DNA of 9,184 nt from Candidatus Nanopusillus sp. (lineage in GTDB: Archaea > Nanobdellota > Nanobdellia > Nanobdellales > Nanobdellaceae): NCBI GenBank assembly GCA_046536775.1, contig JAWDMD010000018.1, positions 1 through 9,184 on the forward strand, written 5' to 3'. Below, piece after piece: positions 549 to 9,184 of this stretch. Below the pieces are notes generated by a model. It searched no databases. It was not told the origin of the DNA and saw only the letters and a program-made list of their open reading frames with translations. Numbering within the stretch: position 1 is the first letter of the stretch; each line of letters starts with the position of its first letter. The translations under genes and the position numbers were made by a program.

Positions 549-1019
549 TCACCCCCCAGGTGTCAACGTGATCGCGGTCCCGGAACCGATGATCGTCACC
601 GAGAACGAGCTGGGCCACGCGCCCGTGTACGGCACGGTGTACGTCAGGACGGCCGGCGAGTCTGGCGGGATGGTGCTGGCGGCGTTCCCATCCACGCTCA
701 GCTGGAACTGCCCGCCCCCGAGCGTGTATGTGTTCCCCGCCACGTACGTCACCACCTCGCTCGGCGTGAAGGGGGAGGTTCCGTAGCTGTAGAGGTACAG
801 CGTCACCTGCGTGCCGCCGCTCACCGGGGTCGCGGTCCAGTAGGTCAGGCTGATGCCCACGCCGGCGGACTGCGCTGATTGTGAGACAGCGCTGGCCGCC
901 GACTGCGACGCCGCTTGGTAGCGGAGGTAGAGCGGGTAGACGGCGGCCGCGAAGACCACCATGACTATCGCGATCAGGATGATCGCGGAGAGCATCTCGG
1001 AGACGGCCGCGCGCCTCAC
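549..1019 (-). CDS. Archaeal type IV pilin-like protein (class III signal peptide), paralog A
   Basis: 156-aa ORF. The N-terminus MRRAAVSEMLSAIILIAIVMVVFAAAVY is a short basic leader followed by a hydrophobic helix of about 22 residues. The remainder is S/T/G/V-rich and beta-type. A CTTTTTAAGG TATA-like element (1039-1048) is centred 24.5 nt upstream of the ATG, which implies a leaderless transcript. Confidence 0.85.
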   Translation of the reverse strand: MRRAAVSEMLSAIILIAIVMVVFAAAVYPLYLRYQAASQSAASAVSQSAQSAGVGISLTYWTATPVSGGTQVTLYLYSYGTSPFTPSEVVTYVAGNTYTLGGGQFQLSVDGNAASTIPPDSPAVLTYTVPYTGAWPSSFSVTIIGSGTAITLTPGG

Positions 1020-1038
1020 ACAGGCGCGTGCCGTGGCG

Positions 1039-1048
1039 CTTTTTAAGG
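1039..1048 (-). promoter_or_regulatory. TATA-box-like element for pilin A, embedded in the inverted repeat GGCGCTTT(1035-1042)/AAAGCGCC(1057-1064)
   Basis: CTTTTTAAGG is an AT-rich decamer in GC-rich DNA. It sits at the same 24.5-25.5 nt spacing from a start codon as four other copies in the window. Confidence 0.6.
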
Positions 1049-1568: not shown

Positions 1569-2146
1569 GCCGTCTGAGGGAGGCCTTTGGACCCATTCCG
1601 GAAATTTCGGCGGATCAGAGCTACGAGCTGCTCTCCAGCGGCGTCCTCACGAGCGCCTCAACGGCCACCGGCTCCGACCAGTGGAGGGCGATGGGGCCGA
1701 GCGGGCAATCTGTGAGCGGTGAGATCGCAAGCATCGAAGTGCTCGCGAGCGCGCAGTGGGTCGTGCTCAGTCCCACTCTCGAGCCCTCAAAACCATTTCC
1801 AAGAGCATCGCTATCGTATGAGGCGTCCACGGCGGATCCAATGTCGGAAGCGTACCGCATAATGAACGAGGTCTCCGGGAGGCGCGTCGTCGATGTGAAG
1901 GTCGAGCCCACCGAGCCGCCCTTGGACCGCTTCGGGCCCATAGTGACCGTGACGGTCGACGCGAACGCGAGGGAGGCCCTCGAGATGTGGGTGAGGGCGG
2001 CGCGGGAGGTCCGCGGGAAGGGATTCATACTGGATGTCGCATGGACCGGGAAGACCGACGTGAGCACTGAGGAGTTCATCGAGTTTTCCGCGCGCGCGCA
2101 AGTTAGGATGGGCATACCACCGGTCATCCTCGATGATGACCAATGA
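1565..2146 (+). CDS. Hypothetical protein (about 193 aa), no family recognised
   Basis: Only the second half of the 1091..2146 ORF reads like protein (VSRLREAFGPIPEISADQSYELL...ALEMWVRAAREVRGKGFILDVAWTGKTDVSTEEFIEFSARAQVRMGIPPVILDDDQ). An in-frame GTG at 1565 overlaps the upstream stop (GTGA, 1565-1568), a typical translational-coupling arrangement. Internal ATG starts further downstream cannot be excluded. Confidence 0.5.
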   Translation: MSRLREAFGPIPEISADQSYELLSSGVLTSASTATGSDQWRAMGPSGQSVSGEIASIEVLASAQWVVLSPTLEPSKPFPRASLSYEASTADPMSEAYRIMNEVSGRRVVDVKVEPTEPPLDRFGPIVTVTVDANAREALEMWVRAAREVRGKGFILDVAWTGKTDVSTEEFIEFSARAQVRMGIPPVILDDDQ

Positions 2147-2161
2147 TGTTAAAACGACAAG

Positions 2162-2181
2162 CCTCGCCCTTCAGGGCGGGG
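2162..2181 (+). other. GC-rich stem-loop just downstream of the 1565-2146 gene
   Basis: CCTCGCCC (2162-2169), loop TTCA, GGGCGGGG (2174-2181): an 8-bp stem including one G-U pair, 16 nt after the stop. No T-run follows, so a terminator role is uncertain. Confidence 0.3.
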
Positions 2182-2230
2182 AGGGGGTCAGCATCCCGTG
2201 GGAGCGTGAGGAGGGTGAGGAGGCGCGCCC

Positions 2231-2237
2231 GAGGTGA
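2231..2237 (+). promoter_or_regulatory. Shine-Dalgarno site for the PIN gene
   Basis: GAGGTGA, extending as GAGGTGAGATCC, closely matches the GGAGGTGATCC-type sequence complementary to the 16S rRNA 3' end. There are 11 nt between this motif and ATG 2249. Confidence 0.55.
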
Positions 2238-2248
2238 GATCCGCGGAG

Positions 2249-2827
2249 ATGCCCCTCACCGTGCCCAGGTCGTACTTGGACACTAGCGTGGTGATCTCCC
2301 TGATAACCCTCGATAGCTGCTATGAGAGCGCTAATAACCTCGTGGAGGAGGCCCCAAAGCCGCATTGTGTGTCGACGTGGACTCTGGCCGAGGCCTTGGG
2401 CCGGCTCTCGGAGGGGATTAGGAGCGGAAAGAGCTCCCCCGGATACGAGTTCCTAAGGGAAGGGATGGCCAGACGGGGGATCCCACCCCTCTCCTCGTCC
2501 CTTGAGGTCTTCACATATCTCACGAAAGAGCTCTCCGCGTGGGTTGCCGAGAATGGGGTCGAGGTCTGCGACGACCCCATCGATGACGCCGAGCTGAAGG
2601 TGGGGAACCGCTCGGTGAGGGCCTTCTGGGCCATTCGCGACGCCGCCGAGCTGGCGGCCCGCTTGGGGCTCAAGGCGAAGGACGCAATTCACTTGGCGTA
2701 CGTCAGGCGGCTCCGTCCCGGCCCCCTCCTGACGGTCGACAGCGACTTCACGCGCATCGCTGAGTGGATACGTTCCTTGGGGATCGAGGTCCGCGGGCTC
2801 CCATGTAAGAAAAAGGAGGATTCCTGA
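2249..2827 (+). CDS. PIN-domain (VapC-like) ribonuclease with an internal insertion
   Basis: The four PIN acidic positions occur in order: YLDTSVVIS (N-terminal Asp), TLAEALG (Glu), AKDAIHLAY (Asp), LLTVDSDF (C-terminal Asp). I prefer ATG 2249 to the track's GTG 2234 because that GTG lies inside the SD motif. At about 192 aa it is longer than a minimal PIN domain. Confidence 0.7.
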   Translation: MPLTVPRSYLDTSVVISLITLDSCYESANNLVEEAPKPHCVSTWTLAEALGRLSEGIRSGKSSPGYEFLREGMARRGIPPLSSSLEVFTYLTKELSAWVAENGVEVCDDPIDDAELKVGNRSVRAFWAIRDAAELAARLGLKAKDAIHLAYVRRLRPGPLLTVDSDFTRIAEWIRSLGIEVRGLPCKKKEDS

Positions 2828-2860
2828 GGGCGGAAAGGCCGGATCGGTACGGAGCCGGAT

Positions 2861-2884
2861 CTTTTAAGGCGCCCTTTTAAGGCG
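2861..2884 (+). promoter_or_regulatory. Tandem TATA-like elements upstream of the ATPase gene
   Basis: CTTTTAAGGCG occurs twice (2861-2871 and 2874-2884). The second copy, as CCTTTTAAGG 2873-2882, is centred 24.5 nt upstream of GTG 2902. Confidence 0.6.
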
Positions 2885-2901
2885 GCGCGGCACGCGCGGC
2901 C

Positions 2902-5052
2902 GTGGAGAGGCTCTCGGACCGCGACCTCCTGGGGCACGCGATGGTGATAGGGGCCACCGGCTCGGGGAAGACCAACTTCCTGCTCTACACCATGCACCAC
3001 ATACACAAGAGCATGGACGCGGCCGTGATCTTCGTGGACCCCCATGGCCAGGCGTCGCTCGACCTCGCGCGTATGATACCGGAGACCCGGGTGTTCGACC
3101 CCACCTACTCGCCCTTCGGCCTCAACCCACTGGAGCTCGGGCCCTACTCCTCGAGGGAGGACCGCGCGCTCATGGTCCAGCTCCGCGTGGGCGAGCTCCT
3201 CAGGATAATGGAGGACCTATTCTCGGTGACCGTCGACCGCGCCCCGAGGCTCCTCTGGATCCTGCGCGGCGCGCTGCTCTACCTCTACACGCTCACCGAC
3301 ACCCCGACCTTCTTGGACCTCTACTACCTGCTCACGGACCTGATGGGCATGGACGAGGGGGAGGCGGCCGAGTTCCTGGAGGGCGCCGGGCTGGACGACG
3401 AGACCGTGAGGCGCACGCTGGAGGCGATATCGAAGCTGGAGAGCGCGGCATTCACGGCCGTGCTCAACAGGATCTCTAACTTCGTGCTCCCCCCGGGGTC
3501 GCTCACAGCGAAGACCTTCTGCAGCAGGCGCACGACCGTGCCGTTCGCGGAGCTCCTGAGGCCGGGCTCGATATCCGCGTTCCGCCTCCCGACGTATGCG
3601 CTCCCGGAAGACTTCCGCCGCGTCGCCACGTCGACAATAGTGATGGACGTCTACTTCGAGGTCCAGAGGCGCTTCCGCTCCCTGGAGCTGGGAGGGGGCG
3701 GGGTGTCCTCATTCTCCGGGGGGCCGGCGCCCGTCTACTTGGTGATAGACGAGTTCCAGAACGTGGCGGACCTGGACCTCCTGAAGACCATACTCGCGGA
3801 GGCGCGCAAGTTCGGCCTCTACCTGATCGTGGCGCACCAGAACATAGCGCAGGTGAGGGAGGACCTCTTCCAGAGCTTCGCGGGGAACGCCGCGCTCGTG
3901 GTCTCGTTCCGCGTTGGGCCGGACGACGCGCTCAAGATGAAGCAGGTGCTGAACGTCAAGGACCAGGCCGTCCTCACCTCACTCCCCAACTACACCGCGA
4001 TAGTGCGCAGGAACCCGGTCGGCGGCGGAATACTGACCTATTACATGCGGGTGCCGCGCGCCCCCGCGCCGGTCCTCCCGGAGGACGAGGTGCTCAAACG
4101 CCTGAGGGAGGCCCCGCCCACCGCGAACGAGGACCGCAGCATAGTCTACAGGCGCGCGATGGAGGGCGCCGCGGAGAGGTCCGGGAGGCCGCCGCTGACG
4201 CCGGCGCGCTGGGCGGTGCTGGCGGCCGTGCGCCTGGGCATGGCGACCACCTATAAGGCGCTGGTGGACCTCATGTACCACCGCTACGCGTGGGACGAGA
4301 GCGTGACCCTGTCCGCGATAAACTACCTGATGGACTCCGGCCTGCTGGTCGCGGCCGGGGCCAGCGCCGACACCGAGTACGAGGTGACCCGGGAGGCTGA
4401 GAGGTACTTCCACAGCGCGGTCGCGGGTCCCCGGGCCGGCGGGCCGGTGCACAACGCGATAGTCCGGAAGCTCCTGCACGACTACTGGGAGCGCGGCTAC
4501 TACTGCGAGGTGGACGACGGCTCGCCCGGCCCCGAGAAACCGGACATAGTGGTCTGGAGGCCGGTCACGCGCCGCGTCGAATCGAAGTTCCAGACCCGCG
4601 AGGAGCGCGACCCGGCGCGCTGGGACCCCGAGCCGGTGGCGATAGAGGTGGAGACGATGCTCGGGCGCAGGCGGCAGATACCGAGGAACTTGGAGAAGGT
4701 GAGGCGCTACCCGCGCGCCGCCTTCGTGACGGACTCGAACGCGCATAAGGAGAAGCTCAGGGCGATAATGCGGGAGGCCGGCATAGAGTATCCAATCGAG
4801 GTGGTGAACATCGGCATGGTCGAGCAGACACCGGCCGAGGAGGACCTTGACTCGTTCCTCGTCACCCTGGTGATCAACGGGTGGCCTGGCGAGGAAAAGG
4901 CCGCGGAGCTCGCCGGGGCGGACGTGGAGGACGTGAGGGAGCACTTGGAGGGCCTCATAGAGGCCGGTGTGATAAGGCGCCGCGAGGACGGGTCGCTCGA
5001 GGCGGTGGTGGAGGCCGAGGGCGGCGGCCCCGGATCCCGACCACGTGCGTAA
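2902..5052 (+). CDS. P-loop NTPase of the VirB4/VirD4(TraG)/HerA-FtsK class (AAA_10-like), fused to a winged-helix module, a PD-(D/E)xK-like module and a second winged-helix module
   Basis: Walker A GATGSGKT (2950-2973) begins at residue 17. FVDPHG follows. Walker B is VYLVIDEFQN (3733-3762). ARKFGLYLIVAHQNIAQV (about 3802-3855) resembles the TraG/VirD4 C-terminal RK.G..l..Q..sQl motif. Towards the C-terminus: a wHTH-like stretch (PLTPARWAVLAAVRLGMATTYKALVDLM...INYLMDSGLLV), a nuclease-like stretch (GGPVHNAIVRKLL...EKPDIVVW...PVAIEVET, about 4440-4810), and a terminal wHTH-like stretch (EDVREHLEGLIEAGVIRRREDGSLE). No TM segment is evident. Confidence 0.85.
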   Translation: MERLSDRDLLGHAMVIGATGSGKTNFLLYTMHHIHKSMDAAVIFVDPHGQASLDLARMIPETRVFDPTYSPFGLNPLELGPYSSREDRALMVQLRVGELLRIMEDLFSVTVDRAPRLLWILRGALLYLYTLTDTPTFLDLYYLLTDLMGMDEGEAAEFLEGAGLDDETVRRTLEAISKLESAAFTAVLNRISNFVLPPGSLTAKTFCSRRTTVPFAELLRPGSISAFRLPTYALPEDFRRVATSTIVMDVYFEVQRRFRSLELGGGGVSSFSGGPAPVYLVIDEFQNVADLDLLKTILAEARKFGLYLIVAHQNIAQVREDLFQSFAGNAALVVSFRVGPDDALKMKQVLNVKDQAVLTSLPNYTAIVRRNPVGGGILTYYMRVPRAPAPVLPEDEVLKRLREAPPTANEDRSIVYRRAMEGAAERSGRPPLTPARWAVLAAVRLGMATTYKALVDLMYHRYAWDESVTLSAINYLMDSGLLVAAGASADTEYEVTREAERYFHSAVAGPRAGGPVHNAIVRKLLHDYWERGYYCEVDDGSPGPEKPDIVVWRPVTRRVESKFQTREERDPARWDPEPVAIEVETMLGRRRQIPRNLEKVRRYPRAAFVTDSNAHKEKLRAIMREAGIEYPIEVVNIGMVEQTPAEEDLDSFLVTLVINGWPGEEKAAELAGADVEDVREHLEGLIEAGVIRRREDGSLEAVVEAEGGGPGSRPRA

Positions 5053-5093
5053 TATCAGTGCAAATATTACCGGCACGGATCAGCGCCCGTGCC
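5049..5093. other. Two hairpins in the convergent junction between the ATPase gene and pilin B
   Basis: Hairpin 1 is GTAATAT (5049-5055) with ATATTAC (5064-5070) and an 8-nt loop. Hairpin 2 is GGCACGG (5072-5078) with CCGTGCC (5087-5093) and an 8-nt loop. Hairpin 1 overlaps the ATPase stop and hairpin 2 overlaps the pilin B stop. There is no strong T-run. Confidence 0.3.
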
Positions 5094-5895
5094 CGCCGCC
5101 CTCGGCGACCGCGGCGTGGAGCACCGCGACCGCCGTGTTATTGGACGGGTTCTGGATCACCAGCTTCACCGTGTACTGGCCGGGGCCGAGCGCCCCCGTG
5201 ACGACATTGGAGATCGTCTGTCCCGGCGGGACGCCACCGTTGCCCGGGTACATGGCGCTCGTCAGGACGAGCGACCCGCTGGCGTTGTACACGCAAACGG
5301 TGATGGTCTTGAGGTTCGACCCGCCTGTGTTCTTCACGTTCACGGCGAAGCCGTTGCTGGCGGGGCCGATGCTGGCCTCGATTGATGGGGCGCTGCCCTG
5401 CACCGCGGCCGGGCCGCTGGCCCACACGTAATCGGAGCCGGTCGCCACCACCTCCAGCGGGATCGTCTGCACGACGCCGTTCGCGTACACCACCTGCAGC
5501 TCCACGGGGTAGGTGACGCCGGCCATCAGCGGGCCAAGGGCCTGCACGGGGTAGTTCGGGCCGATGTCGACGGCGCCGCCGGCGCTCTGGCCGGGCGCCA
5601 CGGCCCCGATCACCTTCACGGGGGACTGTTGCTCGACGCCGTCGAACATCATCAGGTCGACCTCGTCGATCGAGATGGTTCCGGGGTCCTTCACGGTGAC
5701 GGTGAGGACGCCCGGGCCGCCGCCTTGGGCGAGCAGGTCCACGTCCTGCACGTACACCGCCTGCGCGACGCTGCTCTGCATCATCACCTGGCGCGCGTAA
5801 CTGTAGAGGGTGACGCCGGCCGCGAGCGTGACCGCTATCAGGATCACGGTCGCTATTATCGGGGCGACTGCCCTCCTGCGGCCGGCCGCCATCAT
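5080..5895 (-). CDS. Archaeal type IV pilin-like protein, paralog B, with two tandem beta-sandwich-like repeats
   Basis: 271 aa. MMAAGRRRAVAPIIATVILIAVTLAAGVTLY carries the canonical archaeal pilin N-terminal motif ([RK]-A-[IV]-[SA]-P-I-I-A-T). Two repeats share V.VK[DN].G...PGQ[ST]...G..Y.V.L.V. The palindromic CCTTATAAGG element is centred 24.5 nt upstream. Confidence 0.9.
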   Translation of the reverse strand: MMAAGRRRAVAPIIATVILIAVTLAAGVTLYSYARQVMMQSSVAQAVYVQDVDLLAQGGGPGVLTVTVKDPGTISIDEVDLMMFDGVEQQSPVKVIGAVAPGQSAGGAVDIGPNYPVQALGPLMAGVTYPVELQVVYANGVVQTIPLEVVATGSDYVWASGPAAVQGSAPSIEASIGPASNGFAVNVKNTGGSNLKTITVCVYNASGSLVLTSAMYPGNGGVPPGQTISNVVTGALGPGQYTVKLVIQNPSNNTAVAVLHAAVAEGGGHGR

Positions 5896-5914: not shown

Positions 5915-5924
5915 CCTTATAAGG
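5915..5924 (-). promoter_or_regulatory. TATA-box-like element for pilin B
   Basis: CCTTATAAGG is a perfect palindrome centred 24.5 nt from ATG 5895. Confidence 0.6.
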
Positions 5925-6002: not shown

Positions 6003-6506
6003 TCAGCTGCCGTACTCGCTCGCGGTGACCGAGGTCGTGATGACCTGGGTCTGGCCGTTGGCGTAGCCGACGGTCAGCTGGAGCTCGTAGCTCTGGCCGG
6101 CGACGACGTTGCTGAGGCCTGATATCTGGCTGGAGGTGAGGGTGCCGCTGGCGGTCTGGCCGGGCGCTATCGGCGTAGTTATCAGCTGCACGTCCACGGC
6201 CTGGCCGGCGAAGTTGGTGACGTTGACCGAGGTGATAGTCACGGTTCCGCCGTTACTTATGGTGACCGTGAGCGTGCCCGCGCCGGTCCCGCCCGGCACG
6301 ACCAGCGAGGCGGACTGGACGTTAGCTACCTGCGAGGCGGCGCTGGAGTGCAGCATTCCGGTCGCATAAACATATAGAAATGCACCAGCAACCACCGTTA
6401 TCACTATCAGAATTATCGTCGCGATGATCGGTGAAATCGCCTTCCTGCGCGCGGAGTTGGCATCACGGTGCACCAAGGGTGCGCCGATGGCGATGGACCT
6501 CATCAC
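6003..6506 (-). CDS. Archaeal type IV pilin-like protein, paralog C
   Basis: 167 aa. ...NSARRKAISPIIATIILIVITVVAGAFLYVY is a textbook archaeal class III signal/pilin N-terminal motif. It also has V.ISNGG...APGQTASG...AGQSYELQLTVGY. A TATA-like ATATTTAAGG lies 22-25 nt upstream of the two adjacent ATGs. Confidence 0.9.
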   Translation of the reverse strand: MMRSIAIGAPLVHRDANSARRKAISPIIATIILIVITVVAGAFLYVYATGMLHSSAASQVANVQSASLVVPGGTGAGTLTVTISNGGTVTITSVNVTNFAGQAVDVQLITTPIAPGQTASGTLTSSQISGLSNVVAGQSYELQLTVGYANGQTQVITTSVTASEYGS

Positions 6507-6523: not shown

Positions 6524-6533
6524 ATATTTAAGG
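6524..6533 (-). promoter_or_regulatory. TATA-box-like element for pilin C, overlapping the stop codon of pilin D
   Basis: ATATTTAAGG is the only AT-rich patch between the two genes and sits at the expected spacing for a leaderless start at 6506 or 6503. Confidence 0.5.
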
Positions 6534-7001
6534 GGCCGCGACCCCTCGCGGCACGGCCTCCACGTTAGCGGTGAGGGCCTCGGTCGAGTTATCCGCGAAG
6601 TATACTAGGAGCGTCACGCGGTACTGCTGGCCGGGGGACACGGACGCCAGCGCCGGGAGCTCCCCCGGCGTGAGCGCGGCCGAGGCGGAGCCGCCCGGCC
6701 CGATCGGCCCGAGCGCGCGGGCGCTGCCGCTCCAGTTGCCGAGGCCCGTCACGTTCACGCACTCGATTGGCACGGAGCCCGTGTTCACTACGGATACCGT
6801 CAGCACGGCGGGCCCGCCCGGCGGCGCGGTGAGCTGCACGCTGCCCAACTGCGCGCCGGGCGCTGAGCCCACGGATCCCATGTAGCCCAGCGTGAATTTG
6901 TAGACCGCAATACCCAGAAGAATTGTTATCACGACTATCACGAGCTCCCAGATCAGCCCGGAGCGGCTGCCCCCGCGGCGCCTGCGCATCTCGTAGTCCA
7001 C
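6528..7001 (-). CDS. Type IV pilin-like protein, paralog D (atypical G/LIWEL N-terminus)
   Basis: 157 aa from GTG 7001, with an alternative ATG at 6989. RRRRGGSRSGLIWELVIVVITILLGIAVY is a basic leader, a Gly, then a hydrophobic helix containing a Glu. VSVVNTGS...SPGQQYRVTLLVYF is shared with paralogs B, C and E. A GGAG lies 9 nt upstream of the GTG, and the gene starts 19 nt after the upstream gene's stop, so it is probably co-transcribed. Confidence 0.8.
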   Translation of the reverse strand: MDYEMRRRRGGSRSGLIWELVIVVITILLGIAVYKFTLGYMGSVGSAPGAQLGSVQLTAPPGGPAVLTVSVVNTGSVPIECVNVTGLGNWSGSARALGPIGPGGSASAALTPGELPALASVSPGQQYRVTLLVYFADNSTEALTANVEAVPRGVAAP

Positions 7002-7020: not shown

Positions 7021-7653
7021 TCACCTCCCGCGCTGGCCCGCCGCCTCCAAGAGGGTTGCCCCCGCGCCGGCCCTCGGCCTCACGGTCACGCGCATCGTGC
7101 GCACGGCCTCGTCCCCGACCATCACGACCAGCTCGTGCTCCCCAATGGGCCAGTCGCCCGGCGTGAACACGAGCCTGTATCTGGAGTTCGATGGCCCCAC
7201 GGTCGCGGCGGCCGCCTCCTGCCCGTCCACCAGCAGGCGAACCTTCACTGGTCCCTGGGCCTTGACCTCGCCCTCTATGACGAGCGGCACGGTCGAATCG
7301 GCGTAGAGATCCGTCGGGGGCTCCGGCTCGGCGCGCGCGGGCCCCGGCGCGGCCCCGGGCGCAGTGGGGGGCGGCTGAACCGGGCGCGGGCCCCTGTGGG
7401 TCAGCGCGTACCACAGGATGAGCTCCATCGGGACAGAGCGGACGGGGAGGCTCGCGTAGGCGACCCCGAGCAGGATCACGAACATGAAGGCGGCGAACTG
7501 CGCCAGCATCCCCGCGCCGCTCAGCGCGGCCGCCAGCCCGGCGCCCACCGCGGCCGAGAGCGCGAATATAACGATCTGGCGCGGGCTGGCGGTGAACCCG
7601 AAGATGGGGACCGACCTCTCCTCCCACCGCGAGCGCTTGGGCCACCAGGCCAT
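7021..7653 (-). CDS. Two-TM membrane protein with a PrgI/VirB3-like N-terminus, a Pro/Ala-rich linker and a C-terminal beta-rich domain
   Basis: 210 aa. EERSVPIFGFTASPRQIVIFALSAAVGAGLAAAL resembles the PrgI-family signature as I recall it (short leader, f-G-[LF]-T-x-R-Q, then a TM segment). A second TM follows (AQFAAFMFVILLGVAYA), then SVPMELILWY, a linker (PRPVQPPPTAPGAAPGPARAEPEPP) and a beta-rich tail (PVKVRLLVDGQ...YRLVFTPGDWPIGEHELVVMVGDEAVRTMRVTVRP). The shared TATA element is 25.5 nt upstream. Confidence 0.55.
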   Translation of the reverse strand: MAWWPKRSRWEERSVPIFGFTASPRQIVIFALSAAVGAGLAAALSGAGMLAQFAAFMFVILLGVAYASLPVRSVPMELILWYALTHRGPRPVQPPPTAPGAAPGPARAEPEPPTDLYADSTVPLVIEGEVKAQGPVKVRLLVDGQEAAAATVGPSNSRYRLVFTPGDWPIGEHELVVMVGDEAVRTMRVTVRPRAGAGATLLEAAGQRGR

Positions 7654-7673
7654 CGCTCACGCGTGCCGCGGCG

Positions 7674-7683
7674 CCTTTTAAGG
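7674..7683. promoter_or_regulatory. Single shared TATA-like element for two divergent leaderless genes
   Basis: CCTTTTAAGG is centred at 7678.5. The minus-strand ATG (7653) and the plus-strand ATG (7704) are each exactly 25.5 nt from that centre. The intergenic region is only 50 nt long. Confidence 0.65.
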
Positions 7684-7703: not shown

Positions 7704-8153
7704 ATGAGCGCCGTTATCCACGGGCACGGCCCCCTGAGCAGGAGGAAGGCAATCTCCGAGATGCTCGCCGTGATAATACTGCTCTCGCTCACGATAGTCG
7801 CCGGCGTGCTGGTCTACCAGATATTCACGGGGAAGGCCAACGTCGCGTCCAGCGCGACGGCGGTGTCGATCCAGAGCCTCACGATCTCGGGCGAGAATGG
7901 CGTAATGACCATCACGGTGCAGAACACGGGCACAAGTACAATACAATCCCTCCAAGTTAAGGTCTACCAGAGCGGCGGCGCCGCGGTGAACGTGAATGGT
8001 CAGTTCTCACCGCCGAGCATCGCGCCCGGGCAGACCACCTCCGGCACGTTCACCGGGACATTCTCGCCAGGCGAGCAGTACACGGTCGTGGTCACGGCGA
8101 CGGCCGCCGGCGGCAGCACGACCACGGCGACGGCGACCGTAACCGCGTCCTGA
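7704..8153 (+). CDS. Archaeal type IV pilin-like protein, paralog E
   Basis: 149 aa. ...GPLSRRKAISEMLAVIILLSLTIVAGVLVY is a class III signal-type N-terminus with the same SEML motif as paralog A. It also has ITVQNTGTS...APGQTTSG...SPGEQYTVVVTAT and a T/A/G-rich tail. Confidence 0.9.
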   Translation: MSAVIHGHGPLSRRKAISEMLAVIILLSLTIVAGVLVYQIFTGKANVASSATAVSIQSLTISGENGVMTITVQNTGTSTIQSLQVKVYQSGGAAVNVNGQFSPPSIAPGQTTSGTFTGTFSPGEQYTVVVTATAAGGSTTTATATVTAS

Positions 8154-8176: not shown

Positions 8177-8198
8177 CTTTTTATTTAATTTTTATTAT
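8177..8198 (+). terminator. Oligo-T terminator candidate for pilin E, overlapping the 3' end of dprA on the opposite strand
   Basis: CTTTTTATTTAATTTTTATTAT contains T5, T3 and T5 runs and starts 24 nt after the stop at 8151-8153. It is the most AT-rich patch in the window. Confidence 0.5.
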
Positions 8199-9053
8199 AG
8201 AGTCGACCGAGCCCTCGTCCAGCCTCCTCGCGCCGCGCCCCGCCATCTCCCGGGGCCACGCGAGGTTCGGGTCGTCGAACGCGCCCCTCCAGATCCAGAG
8301 GGGCCTCCCCAGCCGCAGCGCCGCCAACCCCGTGAAGGCGGTCCCGCCGGCCGGGCCCGCCTCCACTAAGACCACGGCGTCCGCTATCAGCGCGATCGTG
8401 CGGTCGCGCGCCAGGAAGTCCCGCGGCCGCGTCGCGTGCCCGGGCGGGAACTGGCTGACCGCCAAATGTTTCCTCATTATCTCGAGCTGGAGCTCCCGGT
8501 TCTCGGGAGGGTAGAACCTGTCAAGTGGGGTCCCCAAGACGGCGATGGTTCTCCCACTGCGCTCGATCGCGGCCCGGTGCGCCGTGGTATCTATACCGCG
8601 CGCGAGCCCGCTCACAATTACGGCGCCCCGCTCCGCGAGCCTCCCAGCGATCAGCCGGGCCGCGCCCAGCCCGGCCGGCGAGGGCCGCCTGGTGCCGACC
8701 ACCGCGACGCGCGGCCCCCCGAGCGGGATCTCCAGCGCGCCCTCGACGTAGAGCTCGCGTGGCGCGTACGCGCGCTCGGCGCCGCTCAGCCCGCGCCCGA
8801 GGAGTTGCTCGGGGGTGACGGCCCTCGTCCCTCCCGCCCCCCTCGGCGCGGCGCGCAGGGCGCGGGTAGCCTCAGCTCGGGGTACTTGGCCGCGAGGCCC
8901 CTCAGAACCCCGAGCGCCCGGCGCGCGTCCCCCTCGGTGGCCCAAGGCTTCCTCTCCAGGAGGATCTCCAGCCCCTCCTCCGCGGTGAACTCCGGGAAGC
9001 GCGCGTTGTACTCGCAGAACATCACGAGCGTCGCGGCGAGCTCCAGCGTCCAT
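8181..9053 (-). CDS. dprA: DprA/Smf DNA-processing protein (Rossmann-like DprA domain); the true start is uncertain
   Basis: PRVAVVGTRRPSPAGLGAARLIAGRLAERGAVIVSGLARGIDTTAHRAAIERSGRTIAVLGTPLDRFYPPENRELQLEIM...SQFPPGHATRPRDFLARDRTIALIADAVVLVEAGPAGGTAFTGLAALRLGRPLWIW matches the DprA signature: VGsR, SG[LM]A.GID..AH, iAVlG.GlD..YP..N, F..RNRiia.l.dav.vvEa. The N-terminal portion of about 75 aa from ATG 9053 is R/G/A/P-rich, looks non-coding, and overlaps the upstream ORF. The only other canonical in-frame start I found before the domain is TTG at 8945. Confidence 0.85.
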   Translation of the reverse strand: MDAGARRDARDVLRVQRALPGVHRGGGAGDPPGEEALGHRGGRAPGARGSEGPRGQVPRAEATRALRAAPRGAGGTRAVTPEQLLGRGLSGAERAYAPRELYVEGALEIPLGGPRVAVVGTRRPSPAGLGAARLIAGRLAERGAVIVSGLARGIDTTAHRAAIERSGRTIAVLGTPLDRFYPPENRELQLEIMRKHLAVSQFPPGHATRPRDFLARDRTIALIADAVVLVEAGPAGGTAFTGLAALRLGRPLWIWRGAFDDPNLAWPREMAGRGARRLDEGSVDSIIKIK

Positions 9054-9184
9054 GGGTCCATCCCCAGAATCTCGCGGGCGTACGCCGCCGCGCGGTCGGT
9101 CACCTCGACGCGGGCCGGCCGCGCCTCCGCGTAGTAGGCGTCCGCGAGGTCCGGGCTGTAGGGCCCCCGAATATACATGTCGAA
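8786..9184 (-). CDS. Hypothetical protein, possibly SocA/YwgA (Panacea, DUF4065)-like; probably partial, as the frame stays open to the right edge
   Basis: (FD)MYIRGPYSPDLADAYYAEARPARVEVTDRAAAYAREILGMDPWTLELAATLVMFCEYNARFPEFTAEEGLEILLERKPWATEGDARRALGVLRGLAAKYPEL has protein-like composition. [YW]..GP[YV][SV]P.L recalls the W.YGPV.P.LY / GPYS..L motif of SocA/YwgA-type proteins. The last 25 aa or so (RLPAPCAPRRGGREGRGPSPPSNSSGAG) look non-coding. There is an ATG at 9178, but the two codons before it are also open. Confidence 0.4.
   Translation of the reverse strand, partial: FDMYIRGPYSPDLADAYYAEARPARVEVTDRAAAYAREILGMDPWTLELAATLVMFCEYNARFPEFTAEEGLEILLERKPWATEGDARRALGVLRGLAAKYPELRLPAPCAPRRGGREGRGPSPPSNSSGAG

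Follow-up and report, generated by a model that had tools for sequence, protein, structure and literature searches.

A VirD4/TraG-type coupling ATPase of archaea carrying winged helices and a predicted PD-(D/E)xK-like nuclease module

The window analyzed here, the whole stretch of 9184 nucleotides (nt) that covers positions 1 to 9184 of contig JAWDMD010000018.1 of Candidatus Nanopusillus sp. (G+C 61-78%), encodes at 2902..5052 on the + strand a protein of 716 amino acids (aa) in which a VirD4/TraG-type coupling ATPase is followed by a PD-(D/E)xK-like domain set between two winged helix-turn-helix (wHTH) domains. The protein is of a known kind, the TraG/VirD4-like coupling ATPases that archaeal plasmids and integrative and conjugative elements (ICEs) encode; what appears to be undescribed is the nuclease-fold module, its spread over four archaeal lineages and the minimal form of the protein, which begins with the P-loop. 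In the searchable literature, the coverage of which is incomplete so that an earlier mention is possible, we found no description of a nuclease domain in archaeal TraG. Our preferred reading, held with about even confidence, is that this is a coupling ATPase which carries its own module for recognizing and nicking DNA and serves a conjugation-type transfer of DNA, the nuclease activity being predicted from the conserved residues and the modeled fold.

The nuclease-like domain and the winged helices

The C-terminal extension was modeled with AlphaFold2 (AF2) from an alignment of 39 sequences. Over residues 421-716 the model (predicted local distance difference test, pLDDT, 88.4; predicted template-modeling score, pTM, 0.77) lays out a wHTH at 434-495, an alpha/beta domain at about 511-634 and another wHTH at 646-701. 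Since a Foldseek search with this three-domain model returned wHTH proteins alone (MarR, BlaI/MecI, ScpB and AspA; probability 0.97-1.0, E ~1e-2), the middle domain (residues 511-634; 4432..4803, + strand) was modeled separately, at pLDDT 89 and pTM 0.82. It matched nothing in Pfam, NCBIfam or the Protein Data Bank (PDB) in sequence and profile searches, and its assignment draws on the domain model, its Foldseek neighbors and a family of 215 clusters. The modeled elements follow the order alpha1, beta1, beta2, beta-hairpin, beta3, alpha2, beta4, alpha3 and beta5 (in the numbering of the domain model, a helix at 11-26, strands at 30-33 and 45-48, the hairpin, a strand at 75-79, a helix at 88-96 and a strand at 101-106), with alpha1 corresponding to residues 515-530 of the protein. 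Judged by this order, the predicted domain looks like the alpha-beta-beta-beta-alpha-beta core of the restriction-endonuclease fold, to which a hairpin has been added after beta2 and before beta3.

In the PDB, the top Foldseek neighbor of the middle domain was the Bax1 endonuclease (E 0.046, probability 0.82, template-modeling score 0.41), and the other top neighbors were the Pyrococcus Bax1, Card1 and Cdn1. The best match in BFVD had an E of 5e-3 and a probability of 0.97, and the named matches there comprised VRR-NUC (six times), ‘Nuclease’ (four times), MmcB-like proteins (twice), Endonuclease I, the N-terminal domain of TnsA and a CoiA-like competence protein. These matches are individually weak, none of them reaching E<1e-3; the named neighbors of the model are, however, mostly PD-(D/E)xK nucleases and mutually consistent, and weakly support this assignment. 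The first-pass annotation, made from the letters of the sequence, had pointed to a restriction-endonuclease fold in about residues 510-640, and the order of the AF2 elements supports it, the weak neighbors pointing the same way. Six members gave weak matches to HGTP_anticodon (best E 5.7e-4); an identity as such a domain was rejected, since the beta-alpha-beta part at the C-terminal end that produced this likeness, taken to be one of chance, does not include the conserved H, D, E and E residues.

A profile of the domain alone (A4), searched against 1.84 billion representatives, recovered 215 clusters at E<=1e-3 (clusters of 50% identity), which constitute a domain family outside Pfam and NCBIfam. 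Conservation was counted over 113 divergent representatives drawn from these clusters. The histidine of alpha1, H517 (4450..4452; this and the following coordinates are on the + strand), closes a RAGGxxH motif that here reads GGPVH517, and it is kept in 106 of the 106 aligned representatives. At the start of beta2 stands the ‘PD’ motif, P547-D548 (4540..4545), the aspartate of which is found in 112/113, with the preceding position held by proline in 76 and alanine in 31 of the 113. The ‘ExE’ of beta3, E582-V-E584-T585 (4645..4656), is comparably constant (E582 in 112/113; E584 in 111/113), and on alpha2, the helix after beta3, N596-L-E-K599 (4687..4698) retains its asparagine in 107/113 and its basic residue as lysine in 96 and arginine in 13 of the 113. 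D538 is kept in 103/113 and W574 in 109/113. In the predicted fold, the four motifs stand where an active site of this kind would be expected. The succession of a histidine-bearing helix, PD and ExE that had been picked out by eye is thus in place, and its H, D, E and E are conserved across the homologs. The accompanying remark that a threonine occupies the position of the usual lysine has to be corrected: D548 and E582 fit the acidic/(D/E)xK pattern, the canonical lysine position is held by E584, and T585 is the next residue. The conserved K599 on the following helix is a candidate for a relocated lysine. BamHI has a site of this D...ExE type. The conservation is enzyme-like and not a pattern produced by chance, and from these sequence features we predict activity.

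In nearly all full-length members of the family a Walker A motif lies close to the N-terminus, and the domain falls at about residues 500-700; where Walker A is missing, the members checked are fragments of this architecture that are truncated at the N-terminus. One homolog of 1386 aa (P0181 in our numbering of family proteins), the source annotation of which is ‘intein/homing endonuclease’, has the nuclease-like domain at 1127-1247, which suggests that an intein is inserted in its ATPase.

The first wHTH (residues 434-495; 4201..4386, + strand) is modeled as three helices and a beta-hairpin and has a conserved W437 and a conserved WDES at 464-467. The second (residues 646-701; 4837..5004, + strand) is seen in the AF2 model and has a weak match to Pfam HVO_A0114. 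Two winged helices flanking the nuclease-like segment, as had been proposed, are therefore both present in the model, but the second is limited to a part of the family: forms of about 610 aa in Nitrososphaeria stop after the central domain.

The ATPase core and its relatives among TraG proteins and other motors

The ATPase core (about residues 1-395; 2902..4086, + strand), as delimited by Pfam matches, hydropathy and invariant columns, has neither an N-terminal domain nor a transmembrane segment. Its Walker A, GATGSGKT, occupies residues 17-24 (2950..2973, + strand), in agreement with the earlier placement from residue 17, and its Walker B, VYLVIDEFQ, residues 278-286 (3733..3759, + strand); both are intact here and invariant in the family alignment, as are D283, E284, F285 and Q286 in the close family. 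A Kyte-Doolittle scan found no hydrophobic segment in the 716-aa protein and thus no N-terminal transmembrane anchor. In 44/44 close-family homologs (34-98% identity) the P-loop lies within the first ~30 residues, and the P-loop-first start is therefore a family trait rather than a truncation; the lack of N-terminal or membrane-spanning domains, which had been noted at the outset, is upheld by both results. The open reading frame (ORF), which starts with GTG, is the longest reading possible, since there is a stop in frame just upstream and the PIN-domain gene before it (2234-2827) uses a different frame; the ORF is taken as real. The region before it (2861..2897, + strand) contains two TATA-like CTTTTAAGG boxes, at 2861-2869 and 2874-2882, and a 15-mer; the second box lies 20-28 nt 5' of the start codon, and an N-terminal extension is therefore unlikely and the N-terminus no artifact of annotation.

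The core scores above the Pfam cut-offs of TrwB_AAD_bind (46 bits against 20.5), TraG-D_C (29.7 bits against 22) and T4SS-DNA_transf (20.9 bits against 20.1), and, with 23.5 bits, over the gathering score of DUF87. It remains below those of the NCBIfam models for CedB (36 against 700), VirB4 (32 against 643), CedD (22 against 600) and HerA (15 against 970) and of Pfam FtsK_SpoIIIE (16 against 24), these matches being confined to the P-loop stretch, while NCBIfam's TraD and VirD4-like equivalog models aligned over short stretches only, far under their cut-offs. The family profile gave weak matches in the PDB to HerA-type (E 1e-6 to 1e-5), DotL and TrwB chains. In a plasmid collection, the best tblastn matches were the TraG-like genes of archaeal conjugative plasmids, headed by pT33-3 of Thermococcus nautili (32% identity, E 5e-34) and including those of 12 Sulfolobus and 3 Saccharolobus plasmids (pNOB8 and pARN3 among them), Acidianus pAH1 and haloarchaeal plasmids; identities were 25-32% along residues 3-350 of the query (up to 550) and E values 5e-34 to 1e-12. 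By these sequence comparisons the core is a VirD4/TraG-type coupling protein homologous to the TraG of archaeal plasmids. The Pfam families of type IV coupling proteins (T4CPs) and the plasmid matches agree in grouping it with DNA ATPases, and of the initial label, an ATPase of the T4SS/HerA class (T4SS: type IV secretion system), the assignment to DNA transfer is retained, since T4CP families pass their thresholds, while the class is narrowed to VirD4/TraG, neither VirB4 nor HerA.

Conexivisphaera calida has the closest homolog among cultured organisms (69%), and the other relatives are metagenome-assembled genomes of Nitrososphaerota; an exact-match look-up of the 716-aa protein and of the C. 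calida homolog returned no record. We read the gene as that of a Conexivisphaera-related archaeon of the Nitrososphaerota. A single-sequence scan of genome contigs recovered no relatives, and an alignment-based scan recovered the related loci, to which we refer by L numbers. The next nearest proteins after the archaeal family are coupling-protein-like ATPases of Patescibacteria (candidate phyla radiation; P0050-P0120), which are about 28% identical over the core only, are about 820 aa long, have Pfam PF26449 at the N-terminus and are without the C-terminal module.

The module extends beyond the Nitrososphaerota. An hhalign comparison of the Nitrososphaerota domain (A4) with that of the plasmids (A5) gave Prob 95.7% and E 1e-8, with PD, ExE and NxxK in register, and hmmsearch matched the module in pARN3, pNOB8 and pT33-3. 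In the TraG proteins of these plasmids (1006, 1025 and 1370 aa, respectively) the ATPase is followed by a wHTH and then by the motifs, which read (E)EG...RPDLVA...AIAVEIES...QVxxNxxK; in the TraG of a Halorussus plasmid they read AGGETH...QPDAVA...FNIEAET...QNLKR. The first-pass annotation had not recognized the architecture from characterized conjugation, Ced/Ted or competence ATPases; it is not unique to this gene, as the wHTH and nuclease-like module has homologs at the C-terminal end of TraG in pNOB8-type Sulfolobus plasmids and in Thermococcus pT33-3, which are genetically characterized. The haloarchaeal domain, a minimal one, lacks the inserted beta-hairpin. The gene annotated as TraG on the Halorussus aquaticus plasmid (L032, 5878-8229) lacks Walker A and begins in the middle of the ATPase; its start is probably mis-annotated, or the gene truncated.

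The protein studied here thus shares with plasmid TraG (the pNOB8/pARN3/pING/pKEF9 family and pT33-3) a homologous core, solubility and the wHTH with the PD/ExE/NxxK module; plasmid TraG pairs with a VirB4/TrbE-like ATPase, and sister variants of the locus have a VirB4-like ATPase as well. Transmembrane segments number none in the TraG of pT33-3 and one, marginal, in that of pNOB8. Plasmid TraG differs in an extra N-terminal domain of ~275-310 residues and in long C-terminal tails (1006-1370 aa in total), in having (E)EG in place of GGxxH on the first helix and in not keeping D538, whereas the subfamily here has the beta-hairpin insertion and, in some members, the second wHTH. The possibility that the N-terminal domain of plasmid TraG is encoded here by a neighboring gene was rejected, as hmmsearch and hhalign found no homologue of it in the neighboring ORFs. 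The VirD4/TraG proteins of thaumarchaeal ICEs (arCOG04816; Krupovic et al. 2019, PMC6563490) come from the same phylum as our protein and resemble it in their surroundings, a set of VirB4-like and VirB3-like proteins, pilins, a FlaI-like ATPase, TadC/T2SSF, TFIIB and an integrase; the VirD4 genes of Nitrosocaldus ICEs, however, encode ~425-445 aa, the length of the core alone, and are without the C-terminal module. In that paper and in its annotation table, the ATPase is all that is named for the VirD4 of thaumarchaeal ICEs (PMC6563490).

Bacterial T4CPs (TrwB, VirD4, TraD and DotL) likewise are P-loop ATPases with the TrwB_AAD_bind, TraG-D_C and T4SS-DNA_transf signatures, and TrwB and DotL are weakly matched by the family profile. 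Unlike them, our protein has no N-terminal transmembrane anchor, has DNA-binding and nuclease-like domains in place of relaxosome-docking tails and has no known relaxase partner. Streptomyces TraB, a sequence-guided pump for double-stranded DNA, joins a motor of the FtsK/HerA superfamily to a wHTH that reads a DNA site. The TdtA motor of Thermus needs nucleases (NurA-like and Tth111II), by which the DNA to be donated is nicked or processed (PMC5365140). The motors of both of these systems, however, are FtsK- or HerA-type and not T4CP-type; TraB is without a nuclease domain, and the Thermus nucleases are separate proteins of other families.

A further functional parallel is offered by the MOBC relaxases (TraX of pAD1 and MobC of CloDF13; PF13814, Replic_Relax), in which a PD-(D/E)xK domain bearing a BamHI-like D-E-E site comes after an N-terminal wHTH, and for which no covalent DNA intermediate has been detected. 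A wHTH preceding a restriction-endonuclease-fold domain with a D-E-E motif is also what is predicted here, and the TraX family of pTEF1, on which our profile comparison was based, shows GG...H, D, W and ExE-L-T in the same order; in pTEF1 the TraX gene adjoins the T4CP gene. MOBC relaxases are separate proteins, whereas the module here is fused to the motor. Membership in the MOBC family was rejected. The hhalign comparison with TraX is not significant (Prob 2.2%, E 0.021; Prob 0.2% with a richer profile), PF13814 gives no match to the middle domain even at E<=10, and the family alignments, including that of the 113 sequences, contain no invariant tyrosine after beta3 and so no counterpart of Y181, a residue after the ExE strand of TraX that is reported to be essential. 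The wHTH and middle domain may work like a MOBC relaxase by functional analogy, without belonging to that family.

A proposed role in DNA transfer and its alternatives

We propose that the N-terminal 395 residues form a soluble ATPase of the FtsK/HerA superfamily, presumably a hexamer that pumps DNA, and that this motor is probably held at the membrane by partners encoded nearby: a conserved membrane protein of ~430-446 aa, one that resembles PrgI/VirB3 and, among the sister variants, an ATPase of the VirB4-like type. A wHTH would recognize a particular site in the DNA destined for transfer, the restriction-endonuclease-fold domain (H...D...PD...ExE...NxxK) would act as a metal-dependent nickase or nuclease cutting at or near that site, and the attached motor would thread the resulting strand or end into a channel made of the VirB4-like, VirB3-like and membrane partner proteins. 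The module would in this manner do the job of the relaxase, which has not been identified in archaeal conjugative elements (PMC6563490, PMC9905601, PMC12282955, PMC12857230). How the DNA of these elements is processed and passed to the channel is described as unknown in reviews to 2025 (PMC9905601, PMC12282955, PMC12857230). We accordingly put forward, as a tentative proposal that we rate as somewhat improbable in its general form, that the ‘missing relaxase’ of archaeal conjugation is the C-terminal wHTH and D-E-E module of the TraG/VirD4-like ATPase itself. If that is true, elements of Sulfolobales, Thermococcales, haloarchaea and Nitrososphaerota would start transfer with one polypeptide that combines recognition of the origin, a hydrolytic nick and pumping; this would be a fusion of motor and nickase without a described bacterial counterpart, working in a MOBC-like manner with an origin that is either independent or too remote to detect. 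The enzyme-like domain sits in a protein that is genetically essential in both Sulfolobus and Thermococcus: traG is required for the transfer of pM164 and for Hfr-like mobilization in S. islandicus (PMC9899855), and VirB4- and VirD4-like genes are required for the conjugation of pT33-3 (PMC12857230). The relaxase question is thereby reduced to a few point mutations (D/E/E, H and K) in two existing genetic systems.

Several observations weigh against a nicking coupling ATPase. The canonical lysine is replaced by a glutamate (E584), and one family member (P0022) has lost four motif residues, which may mean that the activity is dispensable in some lineages. The comparison with MOBC TraX, as detailed above, is not significant, and there is no conserved tyrosine that could form a covalent intermediate of the relaxase type. 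A hydrolytic nick leaves the resealing of the DNA in the recipient to be explained, and Beltran et al. proposed HerA-NurA as the source of single-stranded DNA in archaeal transfer (PMC9905601). We found no oriT-like (origin-of-transfer-like) repeat array in the window, nor is there a VirB4-like gene at the position that it occupies in the sister variants, where the pilin gene 5080-5895 stands instead.

The loss of motif residues in P0022 and the missing lysine also favor a fairly unlikely alternative, in which the nuclease-like domain is inert and serves DNA binding (loading at clt- or KOPS-like sites as in Streptomyces TraB or FtsK gamma), oligomerization, docking or autoregulation, so that the protein pumps without cutting. 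The two wHTH domains, the lack of a significant match to a characterized nuclease and a promoter element common to three genes of the cluster, which could be a binding site, are compatible with such a protein; but the near-invariance of three acidic residues, a histidine, an asparagine and a lysine across 113 representatives and four archaeal lineages is the pattern of a metal site and not of a binding surface, and D-E-E sites without lysine are active in BamHI and in the MOBC relaxases. We also think it rather unlikely that a nicking coupling ATPase is the wrong reading for a different reason, namely that the locus serves the uptake or exchange of chromosomal DNA in a Ced/Ted- or competence-like manner, with pili making contact, the ATPase importing, the nuclease degrading or nicking a strand and DprA loading single-stranded DNA onto a recombinase. 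DprA does directly adjoin the cluster both in the window and in L023, and by collinearity it does so in L038 too; the window has five type IV pilin genes of the Ups-like kind, the 16.5 kb of L038 showed neither an integrase nor a replication gene, and the locus is widespread at 80-98% identity on many contigs of hot-spring metagenomes. As Ced demonstrates, moreover, T4SS-like machines of archaea are able to import DNA (PMC9905601). The linkage to DprA is, however, seen in the closest relatives only, DprA not having been found in the more distant loci L001-L022, and relatives lie in elements with an integrase, TFIIB and T2SSF, as in ICEs. The scores for CedB and CedD fall far short of their NCBIfam cut-offs (36 against 700 and 22 against 600), and homologous TraG proteins act in the donation of plasmids.

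To a role outside DNA transfer proper, in which a helicase-nuclease of the HerA-NurA or XPB-Bax1 sort would process ends for repair or defense, or act in exclusion or restriction, we assign little probability. It would account for the matches to HerA-type PDB chains (E 1e-6 to 1e-5), for the best PDB fold neighbor, Bax1, being the nuclease partner of XPB, and for the PIN cassette and the TnpB, methylase and OLD-family genes in related loci. Yet the protein scores 15 with the NCBIfam model of HerA, the cut-off of which is 970, while T4CP families of Pfam pass their thresholds, the PIN cassette is a variable insertion, and the linkage that is conserved is to VirB4-like, PrgI-like, pilin and FlaI-like genes.

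The gene cluster, its promoters and related loci

Around the ATPase gene the window encodes type IV pilin-like proteins at 549..1019 (- strand; NCBIfam UpsB-like, with an N-terminal transmembrane segment and homologs in L003, L004 and L005), at 5080-5895, 6003-6506 and 6528-7001 (all on the - strand; NCBIfam arch_flag_Nterm and UpsA-like, with N-terminal transmembrane segments) and at 7704..8153 (+ strand; with a CARDB-like domain, from Pfam and NCBIfam). A PrgI/VirB3-like membrane protein with two transmembrane segments and a beta-rich C-terminal part is encoded at 7021..7653 (- strand; Pfam PrgI 1.4e-3, under the threshold), and its homologs adjoin the ATPase in L001, L003, L005 and L006. 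At 8181..9053 (- strand) lies a DprA homolog (Pfam DNA_processg_A, 1.5e-47), and its position beside a T4SS-like or pilus cluster is a hint at the handling of single-stranded DNA. In the DprA ORF the Pfam match begins at residue 96, and the true start is therefore probably further downstream; a small upstream ORF (8786-9178, - strand) overlaps the long frame. No tRNA genes, Rfam families or meaningful tandem repeats were found in the window.

The segment 1011..2860 (+ strand) comprises the ORF at 1134-1568, a further ORF that ends at 2146 and the PIN-domain gene. It is absent from L039, the ATPase gene of which is 97% identical at the DNA level, and it is bounded by an inverted repeat of 49 nt (1024-1072 / 2849-2897). 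It looks like a variable cassette inserted between the pilin gene and the ATPase gene, possibly toxin-antitoxin-like, that stands outside the conserved system.

The TATA-like CTTTTAAGG occurs seven times in the window against 0.24 expected, in every case in an intergenic region just 5' of a gene start (1040-1060, 2861-2882, 5915-5924 and 7675-7683), the downstream genes being the ATPase gene, the PrgI-like gene, pilin genes and ORF 1134. The distance to the start is ~20-30 nt for the ATPase gene, the PrgI-like gene and the pilin genes 5080-5895 and 7704, a spacing that suggests leaderless or short-leader transcripts and multiple, separately promoted units. The 15-mer CGCGTGCCGYGGCGC, present at 1025-1039 (+), 2882-2896 (-) and 7660-7674 (+), abuts the TATA box at three promoters, those of the pilin gene 549-1019, the ATPase gene and the PrgI-like gene; L023, an 89% relative, has it only as a copy with two mismatches. 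CGCGTGCCGYGGCGC may be a common operator, possibly the target of one of the wHTH domains, and the shared element CGCGTGCCGYGGCGC-TTTTAAGG is a candidate wHTH-binding site.

Locus L038 is collinear with the window at 93% identity and adds a FlaI/PilB-type ATPase downstream (14010-15755) and a membrane protein of 446 aa upstream (1928-3268). Homologs of the latter adjoin the VirD4-like gene in L001 (8435-9709), L024 (8449-9738), L006 (7422-8450), L030 (8747-9964) and L031 (6236-7300). This conserved protein of ~430-446 aa has three N-terminal transmembrane segments and a soluble part of ~300 aa, is split into two ORFs in some loci and belongs to no Pfam family; it is a candidate for the membrane anchor of the motor. 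A second, VirB4-like ATPase of the FtsK/HerA superfamily lies directly 3' of the VirD4-like gene in the sister variants L039 (5019-5936), L055 (697-2244) and L057 (707-2254), and its identity with the VirB4-like gene of L001 amounts to 48-57%. In these three loci, as in L001 and L024, the second ATPase shows similarity to AAA_10, P-loop_TraG and DUF87, mostly under threshold. Among the other loci, L001 and L024 have VirB4-like and T2SSE ATPases and a DNA methylase, L029 and L031 have T2SSF, a TFIIB-type Zn-ribbon or TFIIB match is found in L001 and L031, and L029 has a tyrosine recombinase beside housekeeping genes. The gene set in these regions of the distant relatives is that of thaumarchaeal ICEs (PMC6563490). 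IS605-type TnpB genes stand at differing places in the collinear loci (L023 3044-4477, L038 3293-4447 and L029 7893-9161), and these insertions indicate recent rearrangement of the locus.

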